Assembly: GCA_963715745.1 (NCBI GenBank)
Contig: OY970271.1
Coordinates: 499,129 to 563,128, forward strand
DNA from: an uncultured Ignavibacteriales bacterium
GTDB lineage: Bacteria > Bacteroidota > Ignavibacteria > Ignavibacteriales > Ignavibacteriaceae
DNA: 64,000 nucleotides
Direction of reading: 5' to 3'
Below the pieces are notes generated by a model, which ran no database searches, was not told the DNA's origin, and saw only the letters and a list, made by a program, of their open reading frames with translations. This document shows positions 1-64,000 of this stretch, in pieces (within the stretch, counting starts at the first letter, position 1; each line of letters starts with the position of its first letter). The translations under genes and the position numbers were made by a program.

Positions 1-693
1 AATTATTTCATATCCTTCAAAAGCTATGAATGTTAATCCCATTGCACTTAAAATACCTGGGAAGCCCTTAGGGGAAAAATTTTGGAATTTTTGAAAGAAT
101 GCAGGATGTGATACTATTGCCCATATTCCGCTTACAATAAAGATAATTAAGATTACAACTTTTGCCATCGTAACTATATTTCCGGCTAAGCCGGTTTCGG
201 AAACTCCCTTATAATTTATTGCAACGAATGTGAGTATTATAATTACAGTAATTAACTTGTTAAGCATCTCACCGTGCAAACCGAATATTGAAATATTAAA
301 GTTATTGAGCACCAGGACGAAATAAGCTCCGAATCCCATCGCATAAAGACTGCCTGCAACAGCATGTGCAAACCAGCTCATCCATCCGGCTTGAAACGCA
401 TTTGGTCCGGGCAGTCCTTCTTTCACCCATAAATATCCTCCGCCAGCTTCCGGAATTGCGGATCCAAGTTCCGCGTAAACCATAGCGGTAAATACAGTCA
501 CTATTCCGTTAAGAGCAAACGATAGCAGTAATGCCGGTCCGGCAGTACCTGCTGCTATTCCGGTAAGCACAAATATTCCGGCGCCAATCATCGCGCCTAC
601 GCCGATCATAGTAATATCGAACAGCGAAAGGTCACGGCTTAATCCGACTTCAAATTGCCCGTTGCTTTTCACACTATTAGTATTGTTCGCCAC
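1..693 (-). CDS. APC-family amino acid permease, N-terminal part (gene continues past window start)
   Basis: Not in ORF track because there is no stop in the window. Reverse translation from GTG 693-691 gives VANNTNSVKSNGQFEVGLSRDLSLFDITMIGVGAMIGAGIFVLTGIAAGTAGPALLLSFALNGIVTVFTAMVYAELGSAIPEAGGGYLW, a typical APC transporter N-terminus. An in-frame TAA lies just upstream of the GTG. Confidence 0.8.
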   Translation of the reverse strand, partial: MANNTNSVKSNGQFEVGLSRDLSLFDITMIGVGAMIGAGIFVLTGIAAGTAGPALLLSFALNGIVTVFTAMVYAELGSAIPEAGGGYLWVKEGLPGPNAFQAGWMSWFAHAVAGSLYAMGFGAYFVLVLNNFNISIFGLHGEMLNKLITVIIILTFVAINYKGVSETGLAGNIVTMAKVVILIIFIVSGIWAIVSHPAFFQKFQNFSPKGFPGILSAMGLTFIAFEGYEII

Positions 694-973
694 GTATTAT
701 CCCGTATATTGTTTTTGGTAAAAAAAATATAATATCAATTTATACCACTTAATAGAATAGTTATTATTCAATTAAATCGTAAAACTACAGTAAGAAATTG
801 AAAATACTTATTTACTAAATTAATTAACACCCTTTCATAATGGAAATTAAGCCTGCCGAAATTAAAAGGTTTTAATCTGAAAAATTAATAAAATAACGTT
901 TATTTGAATTAGCAGCTATTTTGGTATAAATACGAAAATATTTAATACAAACATTAAAAGATTAATTAAAGCC

Positions 974-1780
974 ATGAAAACTCCGAATAAAATTTTTGAC
1001 TTTTCAAAAGAGAAGCAATATTTCTTTTCAACTATAATACTTTTTTCTTTATTACAATACTTTATAACGTTCAAAACACAATTGGCTATGAAACAGTTTC
1101 GATAATACTGCTTCTTATTCTATTCCTGCTTCCGCTGCTTCAATTCAGTAGAGGACCGATAATTTTACAAGCAGTGATAAGTGCCCTCGCATGGGATTAT
1201 TATTTTATCCCCCCTCATTTTACAATGTATATAGCAAAAACTGAAGACGTGTTAATGCTGCTTATGTTTTTTGTCGTTGCGGTTACTAACGGTGTTTTAA
1301 CTTCAAAATTAAAAAAGCAACAGAAATTTATGACTGAGAAGGAAAGGCAATCAAATGCATTGTTTAATCTCCTAAAAGATTTTTCATCAGCAAAAGATTT
1401 AAACGATATTCTAAATAAATCGGTTAAGCACATTCTAGATGTTTTCGGATTTGAATCGGTAATATTTTTTCCTGCTGATGGAAATAAATTGAGCAGAACC
1501 CCTCACCAAGCAAGCAATTTTGTTCCGGATGAAATGGAATGGCTGGCGGCAGAAATTTGTTATAAGGATAAAATAGAATCTGGCAATTCCACCAGTATTA
1601 TGCAAGGTGCATCAGCAAAATACTTTCCAATTGTTATTAATAGGTCTGAAATTTTTATTATCGGCATTAAAATAAATGATGAGATAAAATCCAATAAAAA
1701 CAGAAATGGAATTTTTAATGTCCTTCTTAAAAGAATTTGCCCCTTTTGTACAAAAATATTATTCTTACTCTAACCCGTAA
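974..1780 (+). pseudogene. KdpD-like sensor remnant (DUF4118 membrane domain plus GAF-like region), frameshifted and lacking a kinase core
   Basis: The ATG-974 frame (MKTPNKIFDFSKEKQYFFSTIILFSLLQYFITFKTQ) stops at 1103-1105. The continuation IGYETVSIILLLILFLLPLLQFSRGPIILQAVISALAWDYYFIPPHFTMYIAKTEDVLML is in another frame (track ORF 1174..1773), switching at the A-run 1073-1076. A second shift at the A-run 1694-1699 gives TEMEFLMSFLKEFAPFVQKYYSYSNP* ending at 1780. The FIPPHFT motif is typical of DUF4118. No HisKA/HATPase sequence follows. Confidence 0.6.
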
Positions 1781-3742: not shown

Positions 3743-5617
3743 ATGAAGACACAAAAAAGCATAGGGCTATATTTCAGAATTTTGTCCTACCTGAAACCAT
3801 ATTTCAGGAAACTGGCAATTGTTATTCTCTGTAATTTCGGTTTTATTTTGTTCAGCACACTTTCTATGTGGCTGATTGCGCCAGTAATTACAGTAATGTT
3901 CGAAAGTGCACAGCAGCAGCAGACTGTTGAAAGCAGCCAGCAACCTCAAATGCAGGATATTCCCGACACAAGCTTCCTTAACCTGAACGAATGGCTGAAA
4001 GAAAATATTCAGTCTCTTCTTCCGAAGGATGATCCGCTCCATACTTTGCAGTGGTTATGTATAGTAATTTTTCTTGCTTTCCTTCTTAAAAATATTTTTT
4101 CGTTTATCGAATTTTATGTGATGACTTACATAGAACAAAGCGTTGTGCGGGATCTTAGAGAACAGGTTTATGAAAAAACGATTTTCCAGTCGCTGGGGTT
4201 TTTTCACAAGCATAAAACCGGGGATTTGATTTCCAACATTACTAATGACATCAATTCTGTCAACGTTGCAGTTAACAGAAGCTTTACAAAAATTATCCGC
4301 GATCCTATTTTGATAATTGTTTATGTGATGATCCTTTTTAACATAAGCTGGCAGCTTACACTTGTTGCGATTATTGTTTTGCCGCTTACAACATTTATAG
4401 TGAGGAAAATCGGGAATAGCTTAAGACGAAGAAGCATACGTGTCCAGGAAAAAATAGCTGACATAACCTCAGTTCTGCAGGAAACAATCTCGGGGATAAA
4501 AGTTGTTAAAGCTTTTGCGATGGAAAATTATGAAAACACAAAGTTCCGCGAACGGACAAGAGACCATTTCCGTGCTGTGATAAGACAAATAAGAACTTTA
4601 CGACTTGCAAACCCTATTTCTGAAACAGTTGGAATTGCAGTTATGGTTGGGGTTATTCTTTACGGTGGTGTTTTGGTGCTGGAAGGTAACACTCTTCACG
4701 CAGAAGATTTTATGAGATTTCTATTTATACTTTTTGCAATTCTCGATCCGCTTAAAAGTTTAACCGAAGTAAATAACAATGTTCAGATTGCGCTTGCTTC
4801 CGGTAAAAGAATTTTTGACCTTATCGATGAACCGATAAAAGTTGTGGAAAAAGAAAATGCAATTACAGTCAGCGGATTTATTAGCTCAATCAAATATGAA
4901 AATGTAAGTTTCAGATACAATCCGGACAGCGAACTTGTTTTGGAGAATATAAACCTTGAAGTAAAGAAAAATCAGAAAGTTGCGCTGGTTGGCAGCAGCG
5001 GGTCCGGGAAAACAACCTTGCTTAATCTTCTGCCACGTTTTTATGATGTTGAAACCGGCTCAATAAAAATTGACGGAACAGATATCCGTGAGTTTTCCCT
5101 TTCAAGTCTGAGAAATTTGATGGGAATAGTTACTCAGGAAGTTATTCTATTTAATGACACTGTAAAAAATAATATTGCTTACGGAGTTGAAAACTTCAGT
5201 CAGGAACAAATTGAAGAAGCTGCTGCGCAGGCAAATGCATCACAGTTTATTAAAGAACTTCCTAAAGGATTCGATACAATAATCGGTGAGCGCGGAATGT
5301 TTCTTTCAGGCGGGCAGCGGCAAAGGATTTCAATAGCAAGAGCAATTCTTAAAAACCCGCCGATACTTATTTTTGACGAAGCAACTTCTTCGCTTGATTC
5401 AGAATCAGAACTACTGATCCAGGAAGCAATTGAAAACCTTGTTAAAGACAGGACAGTTTTGGTAATTGCACATCGTCTATCATCAATTTTAAATTCCGAT
5501 AAAATTGTCTTGTTGGAAAATGGTGAAATTATTGATGAAGGAGTTAACAGTGAATTATTGAAACGTTCGGGAAGATACAGACAGTTATATGAACTTCAAT
5601 TCAACAATGGCAATTAA
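3743..5617 (+). CDS. ABC exporter, fused permease/ATPase (MsbA-like lipid exporter)
   Basis: 624 aa with 6 predicted TM segments followed by an NBD: Walker A GSSGSGKTT, signature LSGGQRQRISIARA, Walker B ILIFDEATSSLD. It is followed by a GT9 gene. Confidence 0.9.
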   Translation: MKTQKSIGLYFRILSYLKPYFRKLAIVILCNFGFILFSTLSMWLIAPVITVMFESAQQQQTVESSQQPQMQDIPDTSFLNLNEWLKENIQSLLPKDDPLHTLQWLCIVIFLAFLLKNIFSFIEFYVMTYIEQSVVRDLREQVYEKTIFQSLGFFHKHKTGDLISNITNDINSVNVAVNRSFTKIIRDPILIIVYVMILFNISWQLTLVAIIVLPLTTFIVRKIGNSLRRRSIRVQEKIADITSVLQETISGIKVVKAFAMENYENTKFRERTRDHFRAVIRQIRTLRLANPISETVGIAVMVGVILYGGVLVLEGNTLHAEDFMRFLFILFAILDPLKSLTEVNNNVQIALASGKRIFDLIDEPIKVVEKENAITVSGFISSIKYENVSFRYNPDSELVLENINLEVKKNQKVALVGSSGSGKTTLLNLLPRFYDVETGSIKIDGTDIREFSLSSLRNLMGIVTQEVILFNDTVKNNIAYGVENFSQEQIEEAAAQANASQFIKELPKGFDTIIGERGMFLSGGQRQRISIARAILKNPPILIFDEATSSLDSESELLIQEAIENLVKDRTVLVIAHRLSSILNSDKIVLLENGEIIDEGVNSELLKRSGRYRQLYELQFNNGN

Positions 5618-5635: not shown

Positions 5636-6748
5636 GTGAAACTGCTCAAGTCAATTGAAAAAAATATCAAGCATATTCTTTCCGGGACACTTCGTTTCTT
5701 TCTTGAACAGCTTGCAAGGAAACCCGACCAACCTGTAAATAAAGTTTTGTTTATCCGTTACGGCGGAATTGGAGATATGATTCTTTCGATTCCTGTTTTT
5801 AAACAATTAAAAACAGAGCATCCCAAAACAGAAATTGATGTATTATGCGATAAAAAAAATGTTAGTCCAATTGAGGGGGCTAACGTTACAAACAATATAT
5901 TTTTTTACGAAAAGAATATTTCCCAAACAATTTCATTAATCAGAAAACTTCAAAGAAGAAAATATGATTACATAATTAATCTGGTAGTTTATCCCACTTT
6001 TACCTTTAGTTTAATAGCAAGACTTGCCGGAAAAAATTCTGTGAGAGTTGCAGCCGATCAGGAAGAATTCAGCTTTTATTATAACAGGATTTTGAATTTA
6101 CCTCCCAAACGTGAAATTCACATGCTTGAAAGACTTTTTCTTTTAGCTGGGGACTTGATTCAGAATAAGGAAATAAAATCAGAAACTCCATGGATTGATT
6201 ACAACTCTGAAATTAAATTAGAAGCAAAAAAGATTTACGAAAATCTTTGTTCACATTTATCTGTGAATTCAAGCGAATCAAAAATTGTTGCAATAAATTT
6301 ATCTGCAGGTTTAAAAAGAAGGGAATGGTCTGTTGAGAAGTATAAAAAGTTTTTAGGAAGTGTGATTCCGAAATATTCAGGAGCAATTAATGGCTGGGTT
6401 ATTTTTACTGATCCTAAAAAATCTGACGAAAGCAAAGGCCTGATTAATTCTATAAATCAAAAATCAGTCATCCAAATTCCGGCAATAAATGATTTCAGAA
6501 TTATTATTGAACTGATAAGGAAATTTTATCTTTTAGTAACTCCGGACACCTCAATTCTACATGCCGCTTCTTCAGTGGGAACACCCACACTTGCTTTAAT
6601 AATCGGGGAAAACGCGAAGACCTGGTCACCCGTTGGAATTATAAATGAAGTTGTCGTTTCTAAAGATCGGTTAAGTTTAAGCGAGCTACAGGTTGAAGAA
6701 GTTATTAAAGGATTTGATTCTTTAATGAAAAAACTTCAAACCAAATAA
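5636..6748 (+). CDS. glycosyltransferase family 9 (heptosyltransferase-like)
   Basis: 370 aa with the N-terminal RYGGIGDMILSIPVFKQLK motif and C-terminal PDTSILHAASSVGTPT, both typical of GT9. GTG start. Confidence 0.8.
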   Translation: MKLLKSIEKNIKHILSGTLRFFLEQLARKPDQPVNKVLFIRYGGIGDMILSIPVFKQLKTEHPKTEIDVLCDKKNVSPIEGANVTNNIFFYEKNISQTISLIRKLQRRKYDYIINLVVYPTFTFSLIARLAGKNSVRVAADQEEFSFYYNRILNLPPKREIHMLERLFLLAGDLIQNKEIKSETPWIDYNSEIKLEAKKIYENLCSHLSVNSSESKIVAINLSAGLKRREWSVEKYKKFLGSVIPKYSGAINGWVIFTDPKKSDESKGLINSINQKSVIQIPAINDFRIIIELIRKFYLLVTPDTSILHAASSVGTPTLALIIGENAKTWSPVGIINEVVVSKDRLSLSELQVEEVIKGFDSLMKKLQTK

Positions 6749-10443: not shown

Positions 10444-10725
10444 CTAATAATTTTCATTTATTCTAATTGCTTTACCGTTTAAGATACCATCAGAAACTTT
10501 TTTCCTGGCAATCTCCAAAATCCGGCCGAAGGTTGCCCGCGAAATTTTCATTTCCTTTGCTGCCTTTTCGTGAGTGTAAGCAAGTAAATCAGCAAGACGC
10601 AGAGACTCAAGTTCGTCGTGATCAAGGATAATCTCTTGTAATTCGTTCATCGGTATTCCCCGCGGTTTGAAATAATAAGCCGAAGGATTACAGCAGATTC
10701 TTCGATGTTTTCTTGGTCTTGGCAT
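10444..10725 (-). CDS. DUF134 (UPF0251) putative DNA-binding protein
   Basis: The N-terminus MPRPRKHRRICCNPSAYYFKPRGIP is the DUF134 signature. The C-terminal half is sigma-region-4/HTH-like (HEKAAKEMKISRATFGRIL). The track ORF starts 9 nt earlier at a GTG; ATG 10725 is preferred. Confidence 0.85.
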   Translation of the reverse strand: MPRPRKHRRICCNPSAYYFKPRGIPMNELQEIILDHDELESLRLADLLAYTHEKAAKEMKISRATFGRILEIARKKVSDGILNGKAIRINENY

Positions 10726-10747
10726 TTGTTGCACGTCTTATTAATAA

Positions 10748-10767
10748 TTATGAGCATATGCTCATAA
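10748..10767. promoter_or_regulatory. perfect 20-bp palindrome upstream of the DUF134 gene (candidate operator)
   Basis: TTATGAGCATATGCTCATAA lies 23 nt upstream of ATG 10725. Confidence 0.5.
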
Positions 10768-36129: not shown

Positions 36130-36170
36130 TTTATTACCTCCTTTTTTTGTTTTTGTGATTTTGAAAATAT

Positions 36171-36190
36171 ATTTGCCATAATAATGCCAA
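36171..36190 (-). promoter_or_regulatory. candidate sigma54 (-24/-12) promoter for hsp20
   Basis: The minus strand reads TTGGCATTATTATGGCAAAT. It has GG-N10-GC spacing as in the consensus TGGCAC-N5-TTGCW and lies about 45 nt upstream of the hsp20 ATG. Confidence 0.4.
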
Positions 36191-36417
36191 AACGAAAATA
36201 GCTGTAACTAATTATAATTAAATAGGTTAAAGTAATTTATAAGATTCACATATATATGCCACAATGGCAATTATGTTGTCGCATTTAATTAAACCTGAAA
36301 TTAATAGGCAAAATTTCTGTCAAATTTTCATTTTTGGGATATAATTTAGAAACGGATTTAATAATTGTTAATCAAAGGTGGTTTAGTTAATTTTGCGCTC
36401 TGATTTTAAGATAAGTT

Positions 36418-37768: not shown

Positions 37769-37784
37769 TGTTTCACGTGAAACC
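37769..37784. promoter_or_regulatory. parS (ParB-binding centromere-like site) 1
   Basis: TGTTTCACGTGAAACC matches the 16-bp parS consensus TGTTNCACGTGAAACA at 15/16 positions. Confidence 0.8.
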
Positions 37785-37813
37785 AGGGAAATGATGGTTG
37801 AACAGATAAATTC

Positions 37814-37829
37814 TGTTCCACGTGAAACG
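37814..37829. promoter_or_regulatory. parS site 2
   Basis: TGTTCCACGTGAAACG matches the consensus at 15/16 positions. Confidence 0.8.
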
Positions 37830-62011: not shown

Positions 62012-62401
62012 ATGAAAAAGATATTTGTGTGGTTTCTTCTTGTGTCTTTTGTGAATCTTACCGGTTGTTATTCTTCTGAACTGCTTGCCCCGGCATCTTA
62101 TAAGTTTGATGAGAAGAAAGATATCAGAATCATTACCAGGGATACTACTTACAAATTCAGAGGATATCAATATCTTCTTGTAAATGACACACTATCGGCT
62201 ACCGGTGAAAATATCCGCATTACAGAAACAACTCCGGTTGAATCAACTATAAAAATACCTGTTGAAGATATGCAGATTGTTGAGGTAACTAAAGCAGAAT
62301 CGGGCAAAACAATTCTTGCAATTGCAGGGGGAGCTGCTGTTGTGGTTTTGTTGATTGGTTTTATATCACTGTCTAATTCTCACTGGGCGATAACTTTTTA
62401 G
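62012..62401 (+). CDS. lipoprotein with C-terminal TM segment, unknown function
   Basis: 129 aa with the lipobox NLTGC and a C-terminal hydrophobic segment AIAGGAAVVVLLIGFI. Confidence 0.6.
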   Translation: MKKIFVWFLLVSFVNLTGCYSSELLAPASYKFDEKKDIRIITRDTTYKFRGYQYLLVNDTLSATGENIRITETTPVESTIKIPVEDMQIVEVTKAESGKTILAIAGGAAVVVLLIGFISLSNSHWAITF

Positions 62402-62498
62402 GTAAACAGTGAGTCGCAGTTTTTTCCCTTAGTGAAAGATTCCTCCCGTCATAGACGAGGCAAGCATTGCATTCGGAATGACACTGCGTTTTAAAAGG

Positions 62499-62550
62499 AT
62501 GTCACGGACCATTCCGTGACATTACGTTCTGTCACGGTACGACCGTGACA
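62499..62550. repeat. two tandem family-B hairpins (TGTCACGG-loop-CCGTGACA)
   Basis: The hairpins are atgtcacggaccattccgtgacat (62499-62522) and tgtcacggtacgaccgtgaca (62530-62550). Confidence 0.8.
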
Positions 62551-62606
62551 GCCTCCGAAAAAATTAAGACTTACATCAGCAAAAAATGTGTCTTCCAGTA
62601 GTTGTA

Positions 62607-62757
62607 AGCAGTTCACACTTGCATTTTTCTACTACTCACAAGCACCTTTATTTTACTCACAGGCACTTTAAAAGTGCGCATTAGCATTTTAACTTTACTC
62701 ACAAACACTTGAAAAATACGCACAAGCATTTTAAACTAATTCACAGCCATTTTAATT
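62607..62757 (+). repeat. seven phased 19-23 bp direct repeats (iteron-like array), core TCACA(A/G)GCA(C/T)TTT
   Basis: Cores start at 62613, 62636, 62657, 62676, 62699, 62720 and 62741, giving spacings of 23, 21, 19, 23, 21 and 21. All are in the same orientation. Confidence 0.8.
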
Positions 62758-63171
62758 ATTGAACTGGTGAGCTGGGTTCTTCTTCCGTTAAGCTGTAAAA
62801 CTGGTAAACAAGCTAGTCTATTTCTTTATCAAGTCTTTCGTATTTACGGTGGAGATAGTTTTTGTATCTATCAGTTTTTGCTGAAAAAGATTAGTAATAC
62901 TGATATGTGACACCGGGAAAAAGGATTTTTTCGGAAAAAGAATATAGAATACTGAACAAGGAATATTGAATTTTGAATAATTTGATTTATATAATAATTA
63001 ATTCACATTTATTTCTTTCCCACATCCAAGAAAACCTCTTCATTTGCTTTCCTTTAATTGAAAAGAAAAGGCTTTAAACAGCTAAAAAACAGGCAATTTA
63101 GTGCGTAATTGTAATTAATTGTTATGGAATATTATTTGTCCTGTACAGACAAATTTCACAAGCAGGCATTA

Positions 63172-64000
63172 ATGTTCAATTCAATTGTACTTGTAAAACA
63201 GGTTCCCGATACTGCAAATATTCACGGGAAAGTTATGAAAGATGACGGCACTGTAAACCGTTCAAAGCTGCCTGCAATTTTTAACCATGAAGATAAACTT
63301 GCTCTTGAGTTAGCCCTCAGGATAAAAGAAACCTACGGAGGTAAAGTTACTGCAATAACAATGGGACCTCCGAGAGCCTCCGACGTTCTGCGCGAATGTC
63401 TGTTTATGGGCGCAGATGAAACCTACCTTATAAGTGACCGCAAGTTTGCCGGTGCTGATACCCTTGCTACTTCTTATGTGCTAAGCGAAGCAATTAAAAA
63501 AATCGGCAGCTTCCATTTAGTTTTTGCAGGCCGGCAGGCAATAGATGGGGACACAGCGCAGGTCGGCCCGCAAACTGCTGAAAAGTTAAATGTTCCACAG
63601 GTTACTTACGTTGAAGAAATTCTCGATCTCAATTCTGACAAGATAAAAATTAAAAAGAAAATTGATGGCGGGTACGAAGTTGTTGAAAGTACACTGCCTG
63701 TTTTGTTAACGGTGATGAAAGATGTTGCAGTCCCGCGTCCTTACAGTGCAAAGAGAGTAATGGCTTACAAGAATGCCAAATCACTTATGGATCTTGAAAA
63801 GCTTACAGAGGAGAACTCTCTGTTGTACATTGACAAGCTTGTTCACGAATACAAAGAGCGCGGGCTTCTTATTAATACATTAACAATGGACGATCTTCAG
63901 CTTGACCAGGAACGCTGTGGTTTGAAAGGATCGCCAACAAAAGTTTTTAAAGTTGAGTCTGTTGTCCTTGCAGGTGGAGGACACAAAAAAATTGAATCTT
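63172..64000 (+). CDS. etfB: electron transfer flavoprotein beta subunit (partial; runs off window end)
   Basis: Not in ORF track because there is no stop in the window. ATG 63172 gives MFNSIVLVKQVPDTANIHGKVMKDDGTVNRSKLPAIFNHEDKLALELALRIKETYGGKVTAITMGPP...FAGRQAIDGDTAQVGPQTAEKLNVPQVTYV. Confidence 0.9.
   Translation, partial: MFNSIVLVKQVPDTANIHGKVMKDDGTVNRSKLPAIFNHEDKLALELALRIKETYGGKVTAITMGPPRASDVLRECLFMGADETYLISDRKFAGADTLATSYVLSEAIKKIGSFHLVFAGRQAIDGDTAQVGPQTAEKLNVPQVTYVEEILDLNSDKIKIKKKIDGGYEVVESTLPVLLTVMKDVAVPRPYSAKRVMAYKNAKSLMDLEKLTEENSLLYIDKLVHEYKERGLLINTLTMDDLQLDQERCGLKGSPTKVFKVESVVLAGGGHKKIES

Follow-up and report, generated by a model that had tools for sequence, protein, structure and literature searches.

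What purpose might a run of seven evenly phased 21-bp repeats serve in the long gap ahead of an electron transfer flavoprotein gene? In the 64-kb stretch of DNA analyzed here (hereafter the window), a plus-strand gene for a 129-aa lipoprotein with no Pfam domain (62012-62401) is separated by 770 bp from etfB, the plus-strand gene for the electron transfer flavoprotein beta subunit (63172-63999, running past the window end; PF01012, E 6e-44). The original prediction described this gap as free of open reading frames and as carrying a phased repeat array with an additional copy beside etfB, and proposed either regulation of the etf operon or a role in replication as its function. The lack of coding capacity is borne out, the longest ORF being at most 47 aa, and the genes flanking the gap are those for the lipoprotein, an MFS transporter and etfB.

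The array lies on the plus strand at 62612-62758, with units starting at 62612, 62633, 62654, 62675, 62696, 62717 and 62738. As predicted, there are seven head-to-tail units in a single orientation, and the array is well beyond chance. The predicted mean spacing of 21 bp also stands, but the range of 19-23 bp does not, as the measured spacing is exactly 21 bp throughout. The units have a mean pairwise identity of 63% and the consensus TACTCACAAGCAYTTTAAAAn, in which C5, A6, C11, A12 and T15 are invariant; the array's 147 bp contain 35 substitutions relative to this consensus and no indels. Lags 21 and 42 stand out in the autocorrelation, at 0.62 and 0.68 respectively as compared to 0.2-0.35 at the remaining lags, and a weak 42-bp higher-order periodicity is present within the array. 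When the window is scanned with a weight matrix of the seven units, the motif turns up nowhere else (next best score 14.7 versus 16.9 for the weakest unit). The unevenness of conservation from column to column is not significant (p ~0.07), and selection on a core motif within the array is thus not demonstrated. This exact array is present in no second genome, and the literature on 21-bp repeats in Ignavibacteria yielded nothing relevant. A 15-bp perfect palindrome, GCACTTTAAAAGTGC, bridges units 3 and 4 (62663-62677) and is not repeated at the other unit junctions.

An exact register that persists at 63% identity without a single indel is what would be expected if helical phase matters. Seven sites at one per two helical turns would all lie on one face of the DNA, where a sequence-specific protein would bind them cooperatively. 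An iteron-like or cooperative same-face protein-binding array, as originally suggested, therefore stays the best general description, but the two specific proposals attached to it, an etf regulator and a DnaA-dependent or origin element, both fail. The reading favored here is that the array consists of seven phased putative binding sites that belong to, or are a remnant of, an accessory cassette, that it is now an orphan, and that it acts neither in etfB control nor as an origin. This reading is tentative, its probability being put slightly short of an even chance.

The array sits in a part of the locus that differs between relatives, as seen when lipoprotein homologues were traced to their own contigs. 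L038, the closest syntenic relative, has in succession the lipoprotein gene, one GTCACGG...CCGTGAC palindrome, a different array, a gene for an Mrr-family nuclease, a conserved promoter segment and etfB. The L038 array (10570-10762) has a 42-bp unit, which is present in 4.6 copies and contains a TTCCAAAAnTGGAA palindrome, and the Mrr gene follows 118 bp on. The same type of array, with 42-44-bp units that each carry the TTCCAAAAnTGGAA palindrome, follows the lipoprotein gene in L042, whose lipoprotein is 85% identical (array 1130-1433), and in L044 (array 4290-4525), in both cases reaching the contig end. More distant homologues of the lipoprotein gene are followed by a PLD-family gene (L043), by an unannotated gene, with an AbiEii gene upstream of the homologue (L045), or directly by an acyl-CoA dehydrogenase gene with the conserved promoter boxes (L040/L041); in some cases nothing follows. 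The differing arrays and genes at this position indicate that the window array occupies a spacer with turnover and accessory genes. The 400 bp at 62552-62949 of the window have no counterpart among any of the loci compared.

Two perfect palindromes lie ~60 bp ahead of the array (62499-62551). The first is ATGTCACGGA-ccat-TCCGTGACAT (62499-62522) and the second CTGTCACGGT-acg-ACCGTGACAG (62529-62551). They represent a dispersed intergenic element: the 10-bp-arm palindrome (A/C)TGTCACGG-N3/4-CCGTGACA(T/G) recurs between genes in several Ignavibacteria genomes, for example at L006 10453-10472, L038 10495-10514 and L039 7907-7925, with 0 copies expected by chance in the window. These palindromes are candidate terminators, operators or REP-like elements.

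Evidence for an accessory cassette comes from arrays of the same period elsewhere. Metagenome contigs were scanned with a 37-nt degenerate pattern that matches three adjacent pairs of window units and was built without knowledge of any gene. Most of the 49 loci recovered are unrelated tandem repeats. In six of the loci, drawn from two unrelated lineages, a long 21-bp array is followed after 127-270 bp by a gene, and each time the gene belongs to the same protein family. Four are low-GC, Ignavibacteria-like contigs (L139, L159, L173 and L174) with units similar to those of the window (for example TACGCACAAGCACTTGTAAATG as compared to TACGCACAAGCATTTTAAACT in the window); in L173, 11 units in one orientation are followed by 5 inverted ones. 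The other two are high-GC Acidobacteria contigs (L141 and L170), with 21-bp arrays that have the core CTCACACGCATCTGATCG in both orientations. The encoded protein is 125 aa long in the Acidobacteria; its counterparts on the Ignavibacteria-like contigs are internally duplicated and reach 235 aa.

A protein search with this family returned 28 unannotated relatives, and all three that were traced to contigs have 21-bp arrays upstream: 11.8 units of ATTTTCGCTTCCTGTCATCTC in L187, ~8 units with the core AATGCTNATAYG in L188, and an L173-like array in L189. The units of L187 and L188 are unrelated in sequence to those of the window, with the 21-bp period kept. A fourth traced contig starts 167 bp upstream of the gene and is outside this count. 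A 21-bp tandem array thus precedes the family gene in every locus with readable upstream DNA, and the gene is absent from the other ~180 loci examined. Representative family genes are located at L170 13251-13628, L173 3868-4575, L174 254-961, L187 3651-4354 and L188 3665-4375 (proteins P0025-P0200). Many family members lie on contigs of 1-3 kb, as expected if assemblies break at arrays.

An exhaustive profile search (E <= 0.001) places 1,507 clusters in the family, among 1.84 billion 50%-identity clusters. A typical member is ~237 aa long and has two homologous helical domains with a conserved Y-A/T-P-x-N loop. No significant match was found in Pfam, NCBIfam, PHROGs or a PDB sequence profile, nor in PADLOC, where the sole weak match is to Csn2 (E 0.0019). 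Confident AlphaFold (AF2) models of family members (pLDDT 87 and 91, pTM 0.80) consist of long helical hairpins or bundles; a Foldseek search of these models against PDB and BFVD yielded no significant match, and no recognizable DNA-binding fold was seen. Going by these models, the adjacent helical-bundle protein would not be an obvious candidate for the array binder. Inspection by eye of the DNA between the arrays and their partner genes found no convincing sigma-54 -24/-12 promoter.

One further pattern match, L158, carries ~ten 21-bp units (1040-1240, minus strand), which share the core ACACACTCAT and occur in both orientations. The gene ~200 bp downstream of this array (268-882, minus strand) encodes 204 aa, helical in the N-terminal half and fibronectin-III-like in the C-terminal half; hhalign gives no support to its being a homologue of the family. 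In a crude dinucleotide wedge model of intrinsic curvature, strong curvature is predicted for the L158 array alone; the window array is not predicted to be curved, its end-to-contour ratio of 0.94 being the same as that of its shuffles.

Does the window array belong to this class, defined in the present analysis as a cassette of a 21-bp array and a helical-bundle (Y-A/T-P-x-N) protein? The two share an exact period and degenerate, indel-free units, with lag-21 autocorrelation at 0.62 in the window versus 0.61-0.91 in L170, L173, L187 and L188, and the window comes from the same phylum as the Ignavibacteria-like members. In a direct comparison with L173, 31 of 42 positions agree overall and 10 of the 16 that the pattern left free, the best result among the pattern matches. 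With a matrix of 11 L173 units, the window units rank 2, 20, 57, 81, 227, 253 and 1,173 of 127,960 positions, all in one register and one orientation. Neither comparison is independent of the search pattern, and neither is significant after correction for pattern selection and multiple tests. The form of the arrays differs, in that the window has seven units in a single orientation whereas the 10-16 units of L173, L170 and L158 are arranged as two inverted arms. The window also contains no family gene, pseudogene or remnant (tblastn and family HMM, six frames), and it is this absence of the partner family that makes the window array an orphan. The partner gene would be expected in the 191-bp spacer at 62759-62949, which is ORF-free with stops in all frames, is not conserved, contains no remnant of the family and is unlike any relative locus. 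Taken together, membership of the window array in the class is a roughly even call.

If the window array is of the cassette type, it would correspond to the 21-bp array that elsewhere precedes, by 127-270 bp, a gene encoding an elongated helical-bundle protein, and the partner gene would have been lost or would act from elsewhere in the genome. Among the observations counted for this cassette reading are these: a gene-blind pattern search found the rare family in two lineages, members of the family reached independently also have 21-bp arrays, and the locus after the lipoprotein gene is variable. The missing family gene and the array's seven units in a single orientation are among the points counted against it. 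Possible, and held with distinctly less confidence, is a more specific form, in which the array represents the cis element of an undescribed, fairly widespread cassette, present here without the gene, this element would nucleate a same-face filament, and the orphan would act in trans as a decoy or an extra anchor.

Across the cassettes the period is constant, the unit sequence is free and the orientation flips, which points toward a DNA-level assembly on one face and argues against an RNA or a peptide, a reading with which the folding, Rfam and ORF results agree. Such a combination of fixed helical phase and free sequence is a signature of structural protein-DNA assemblies, examples being centromeres, iteron complexes and activator filaments, and by analogy the nearest known behaviors would be those of iterons, ParR-type centromeres and phased activator arrays. 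ParR binds type II centromeres such as parC of pSK41, with 20-bp repeats, and parC of R1, with 11-bp repeats upstream of parMR. The cassettes resemble these centromeres in that the array lies directly upstream of the accompanying gene and the sequence diverges while the architecture is kept (L170, L173, L187 and L188). They differ from them in that no ParM or ParA NTPase is present and the partner is predicted to be a long helical bundle rather than a ribbon-helix-helix protein; the window array differs further in having no partner gene after it at all. The wider lead from this locus is that distant phyla share a 21-bp period ahead of genes from a single unannotated family of helical proteins; if confirmed, this would define a new pair of cis element and gene.

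The main rival to the cassette reading is a decaying tandem duplication, that is, a lineage-specific minisatellite in a fast-evolving spacer, without sequence-specific function, whose likeness to the other arrays is coincidental. This explanation is a serious one, even if we consider it improbable on balance. It fits the absence of the array from this locus in every relative examined, the lack of any further copy of the motif in the 64 kb and the statistically unremarkable column conservation, as well as a similarity to L173 that does not survive correction and a pattern scan that also gave many unrelated tandem repeats. It accounts poorly for a phase that is exact after 35 substitutions and yet free of indels, for an unusual period that recurs with one gene family in at least four lineages, and for a blind pattern search that met this rare family twice.

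Regulation of the etf operon is unlikely. Under this proposal, an activator or repressor would bind the distal array cooperatively and act on an etfB promoter ~200-400 bp downstream, and it is true that every unit faces etfB with no intervening gene. Phased arrays with 22-bp spacing are also known for BvgA at Pptx (PMC7250471), the pertussis toxin promoter, where six dimers of BvgA~P are spaced at 22 bp on one helical face. The resemblance lies in a stretch of ~130-150 bp upstream of a promoter that is covered by weak, degenerate sites, six to seven in number and two turns apart; unlike the BvgA sites, the window array abuts no recognizable promoter, and the orthologues of its downstream gene are arrayless. 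The original prediction had asked for a comparison of the etfB upstream region in relatives, and this comparison speaks against it. Among 36 etfB loci of Ignavibacteria and Calditrichia, drawn from a scan of GTDB species genomes and encoding proteins of 67-85% identity, matrix and TRF scans found neither the array motif nor a comparable tandem repeat upstream of the gene in any (0/36), and the upstream gap is 4-430 bp in these relatives as compared to 770 bp in the window. The array is missing even from L038, the closest syntenic relative, and from L040, although both conserve the proximal promoter boxes.

These boxes belong to a segment outside the array (62950-63171, plus strand) that is conserved in L038, L040/L041, L002 and L004, all of them arrayless. 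The segment matches L038 at 86% over 130 bp, and its boxes are common to L040/L041, L002 and L004. It contains the conserved box GAACAAGGAATATTGAA (62954-62970), a sigma-70-like promoter, TTGAAT-18-TATAAT (62966-62995), the conserved box CTTTCCCACATCCAAGAAAAC (63015-63035), a TTCT-N8-AGAA dyad, and a conserved sigma-54-like box, ATGGAATATTATTTGT (63124-63139; TGG-N8-TTTG(C/T)), for which we infer the spacing of a sigma-54 -24/-12 element. From the end of the array it is 208 bp to the sigma-70-like -35 and 366 bp to the sigma-54-like element, which also speaks against a regulatory role. The AT-rich tract near the array is this conserved etfB promoter region.

The predicted promoter-proximal eighth copy (63155-63170) fares no better, and with it falls another support of the etf proposal. 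The unit matrix fails to recover it, three unrelated places in the window (4204, 25208 and 55802) hold the same 9-mer, TCACAAGCA, and the arrayless L038 conserves the region with a 1-nt insertion in the supposed copy (TTCACTAAGCAGGCATT). The sequence at 63155-63170 falls inside the conserved segment and is etfB leader and RBS sequence downstream of the conserved boxes, not a member of the array.

Two other observations concern this segment. Five loci, upstream of etfB or acyl-CoA dehydrogenase genes, share the boxes at 63015-63035 and 63124-63139 in the forms CTTC(T/C)CACAT..AAGAAAAC and (A/G)TGGAATATT(A/T)TTTG(C/T); the latter is the sigma-54-like box and the former lies ~100 bp upstream of it, a placement that could be that of an enhancer site. 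Out of phase with the main array, two further 21-bp direct repeats (AAAGAATATAGAATACTGAAC and AAGGAATATTGAATTTTGAAT, 62937-62978) overlap the GAACAAGGAATATTGAA box and the sigma-70-like promoter.

It is very unlikely that the array works as a transcript, either as a repeat small RNA (a sponge, or an antitoxin of the type III kind) or as the message of a heptad-repeat micro-protein. In its favor, one 21-bp unit corresponds to 7 codons, several loci have ORFs that run across their arrays, a 38-aa ORF on the minus strand covers 62613-62729, and transcription of the minus strand could terminate at the hairpins (62499-62551). However, at the gathering threshold Rfam has no match in the window or in 8 related loci, folding of the array is no better than that of shuffles on either strand (z = +0.9 and -0.8), the peptides from different arrays are unrelated, and the flips of orientation in L173, L170 and L158 do not suit a coding or single-transcript reading. 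At a permissive threshold, the best sub-threshold Rfam match within 62300-63300 (E 0.024) lies outside the array, and a tRNA scan of the window found none. In type III toxin-antitoxin systems of the ToxIN kind, units of ~34-47 nt in one orientation are followed by a terminator and an endoribonuclease gene. The loci described here share with them a lineage-specific tandem array upstream of a small gene and variable regions with defense-type genes, but have units of 21 bp, an orientation that can flip and a partner modeled as a helical bundle. As a candidate, type III toxin-antitoxin was rejected: no toxin-like gene is present downstream of the array in the window, and the partner family found elsewhere has no significant PADLOC, Pfam or PDB match.

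Least probable of all, to the point that we reject it, is a role in replication, whether as the chromosomal oriC, as a site of DnaA titration or as the iterons of an integrated replicon, given where the origin-proximal point of the window lies. That the window is origin-proximal, as had been predicted, is borne out by mnmE, mnmG and rsmG at 36.4-40.4 kb and by two parS-like sites (37769-37829). These sites, TGTTTCACGTGAAACC (37769-37784) and TGTTCCACGTGAAACG (37814-37829), are near-consensus and fall within the 76 bp that separate mnmE from mnmG, with 0.17 expected by chance; together with the switch in gene strand they mark the window's likely origin-proximal point. Both this minus-to-plus switch and the minimum of the cumulative GC skew, computed over the 64-kb window, fall at ~36.1-36.4 kb, ~26 kb from the array, in a 290-bp AT-rich gap (36130-36417) that lacks a good DnaA box. 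All genes from 36.4 to 60.6 kb are on the plus strand and would therefore be head-on to any fork leaving 62.7 kb.

The likeness of the units to DnaA boxes, also part of the original prediction, holds in that three units contain one-mismatch boxes, but no perfect TTATNCACA box exists at 62400-63200. The array region is the window's densest 500-bp bin for one-mismatch boxes, and the 5' half of the would-be box (four bases) falls in the variable part of the unit. The array does look like an iteron origin. Iteron arrays are typical of theta-replicating plasmids, and the gamma origin of R6K has seven 22-bp iterons. Taking iterons as at least three tandem repeats of ~17-22 bp with ~two-turn spacing, the array has their form, being made of about seven ~21-22-bp direct repeats in one orientation, with a conserved core, degenerate flanks and an AT-rich tract nearby. 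Unlike iteron origins, it is accompanied by no rep gene, plasmid or phage homology or perfect DnaA box. No rep, dnaA or mobile-element gene is found near it, and blastn of the 770 bp against 72,556 plasmids and 50,697 phages gave no match. The array is also not conserved in relatives (36 etfB loci, L038, L040, L042 and L044), and the AT-rich tract belongs to etfB rather than to an origin. In annotating the array, the labels origin, DnaA sink and etf operator should accordingly be avoided.

Scans of viral contigs with both array patterns returned coding repeats only (for example PPAGQAQ), apart from one phage with 24-bp iterons. In this phage contig (L137, IMGVR_UViG_3300012252_000022), four 24-bp repeats, ACAGTTCCAAAAATGGAACGGAGC, lie at 5800-5900 inside a replication-type ORF of 307 aa, an arrangement reminiscent of lambda O, a gene that contains origin iterons. 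The palindrome at the core of these phage repeats resembles the palindrome of the 42-44-bp arrays that follow the lipoprotein gene in the relatives.
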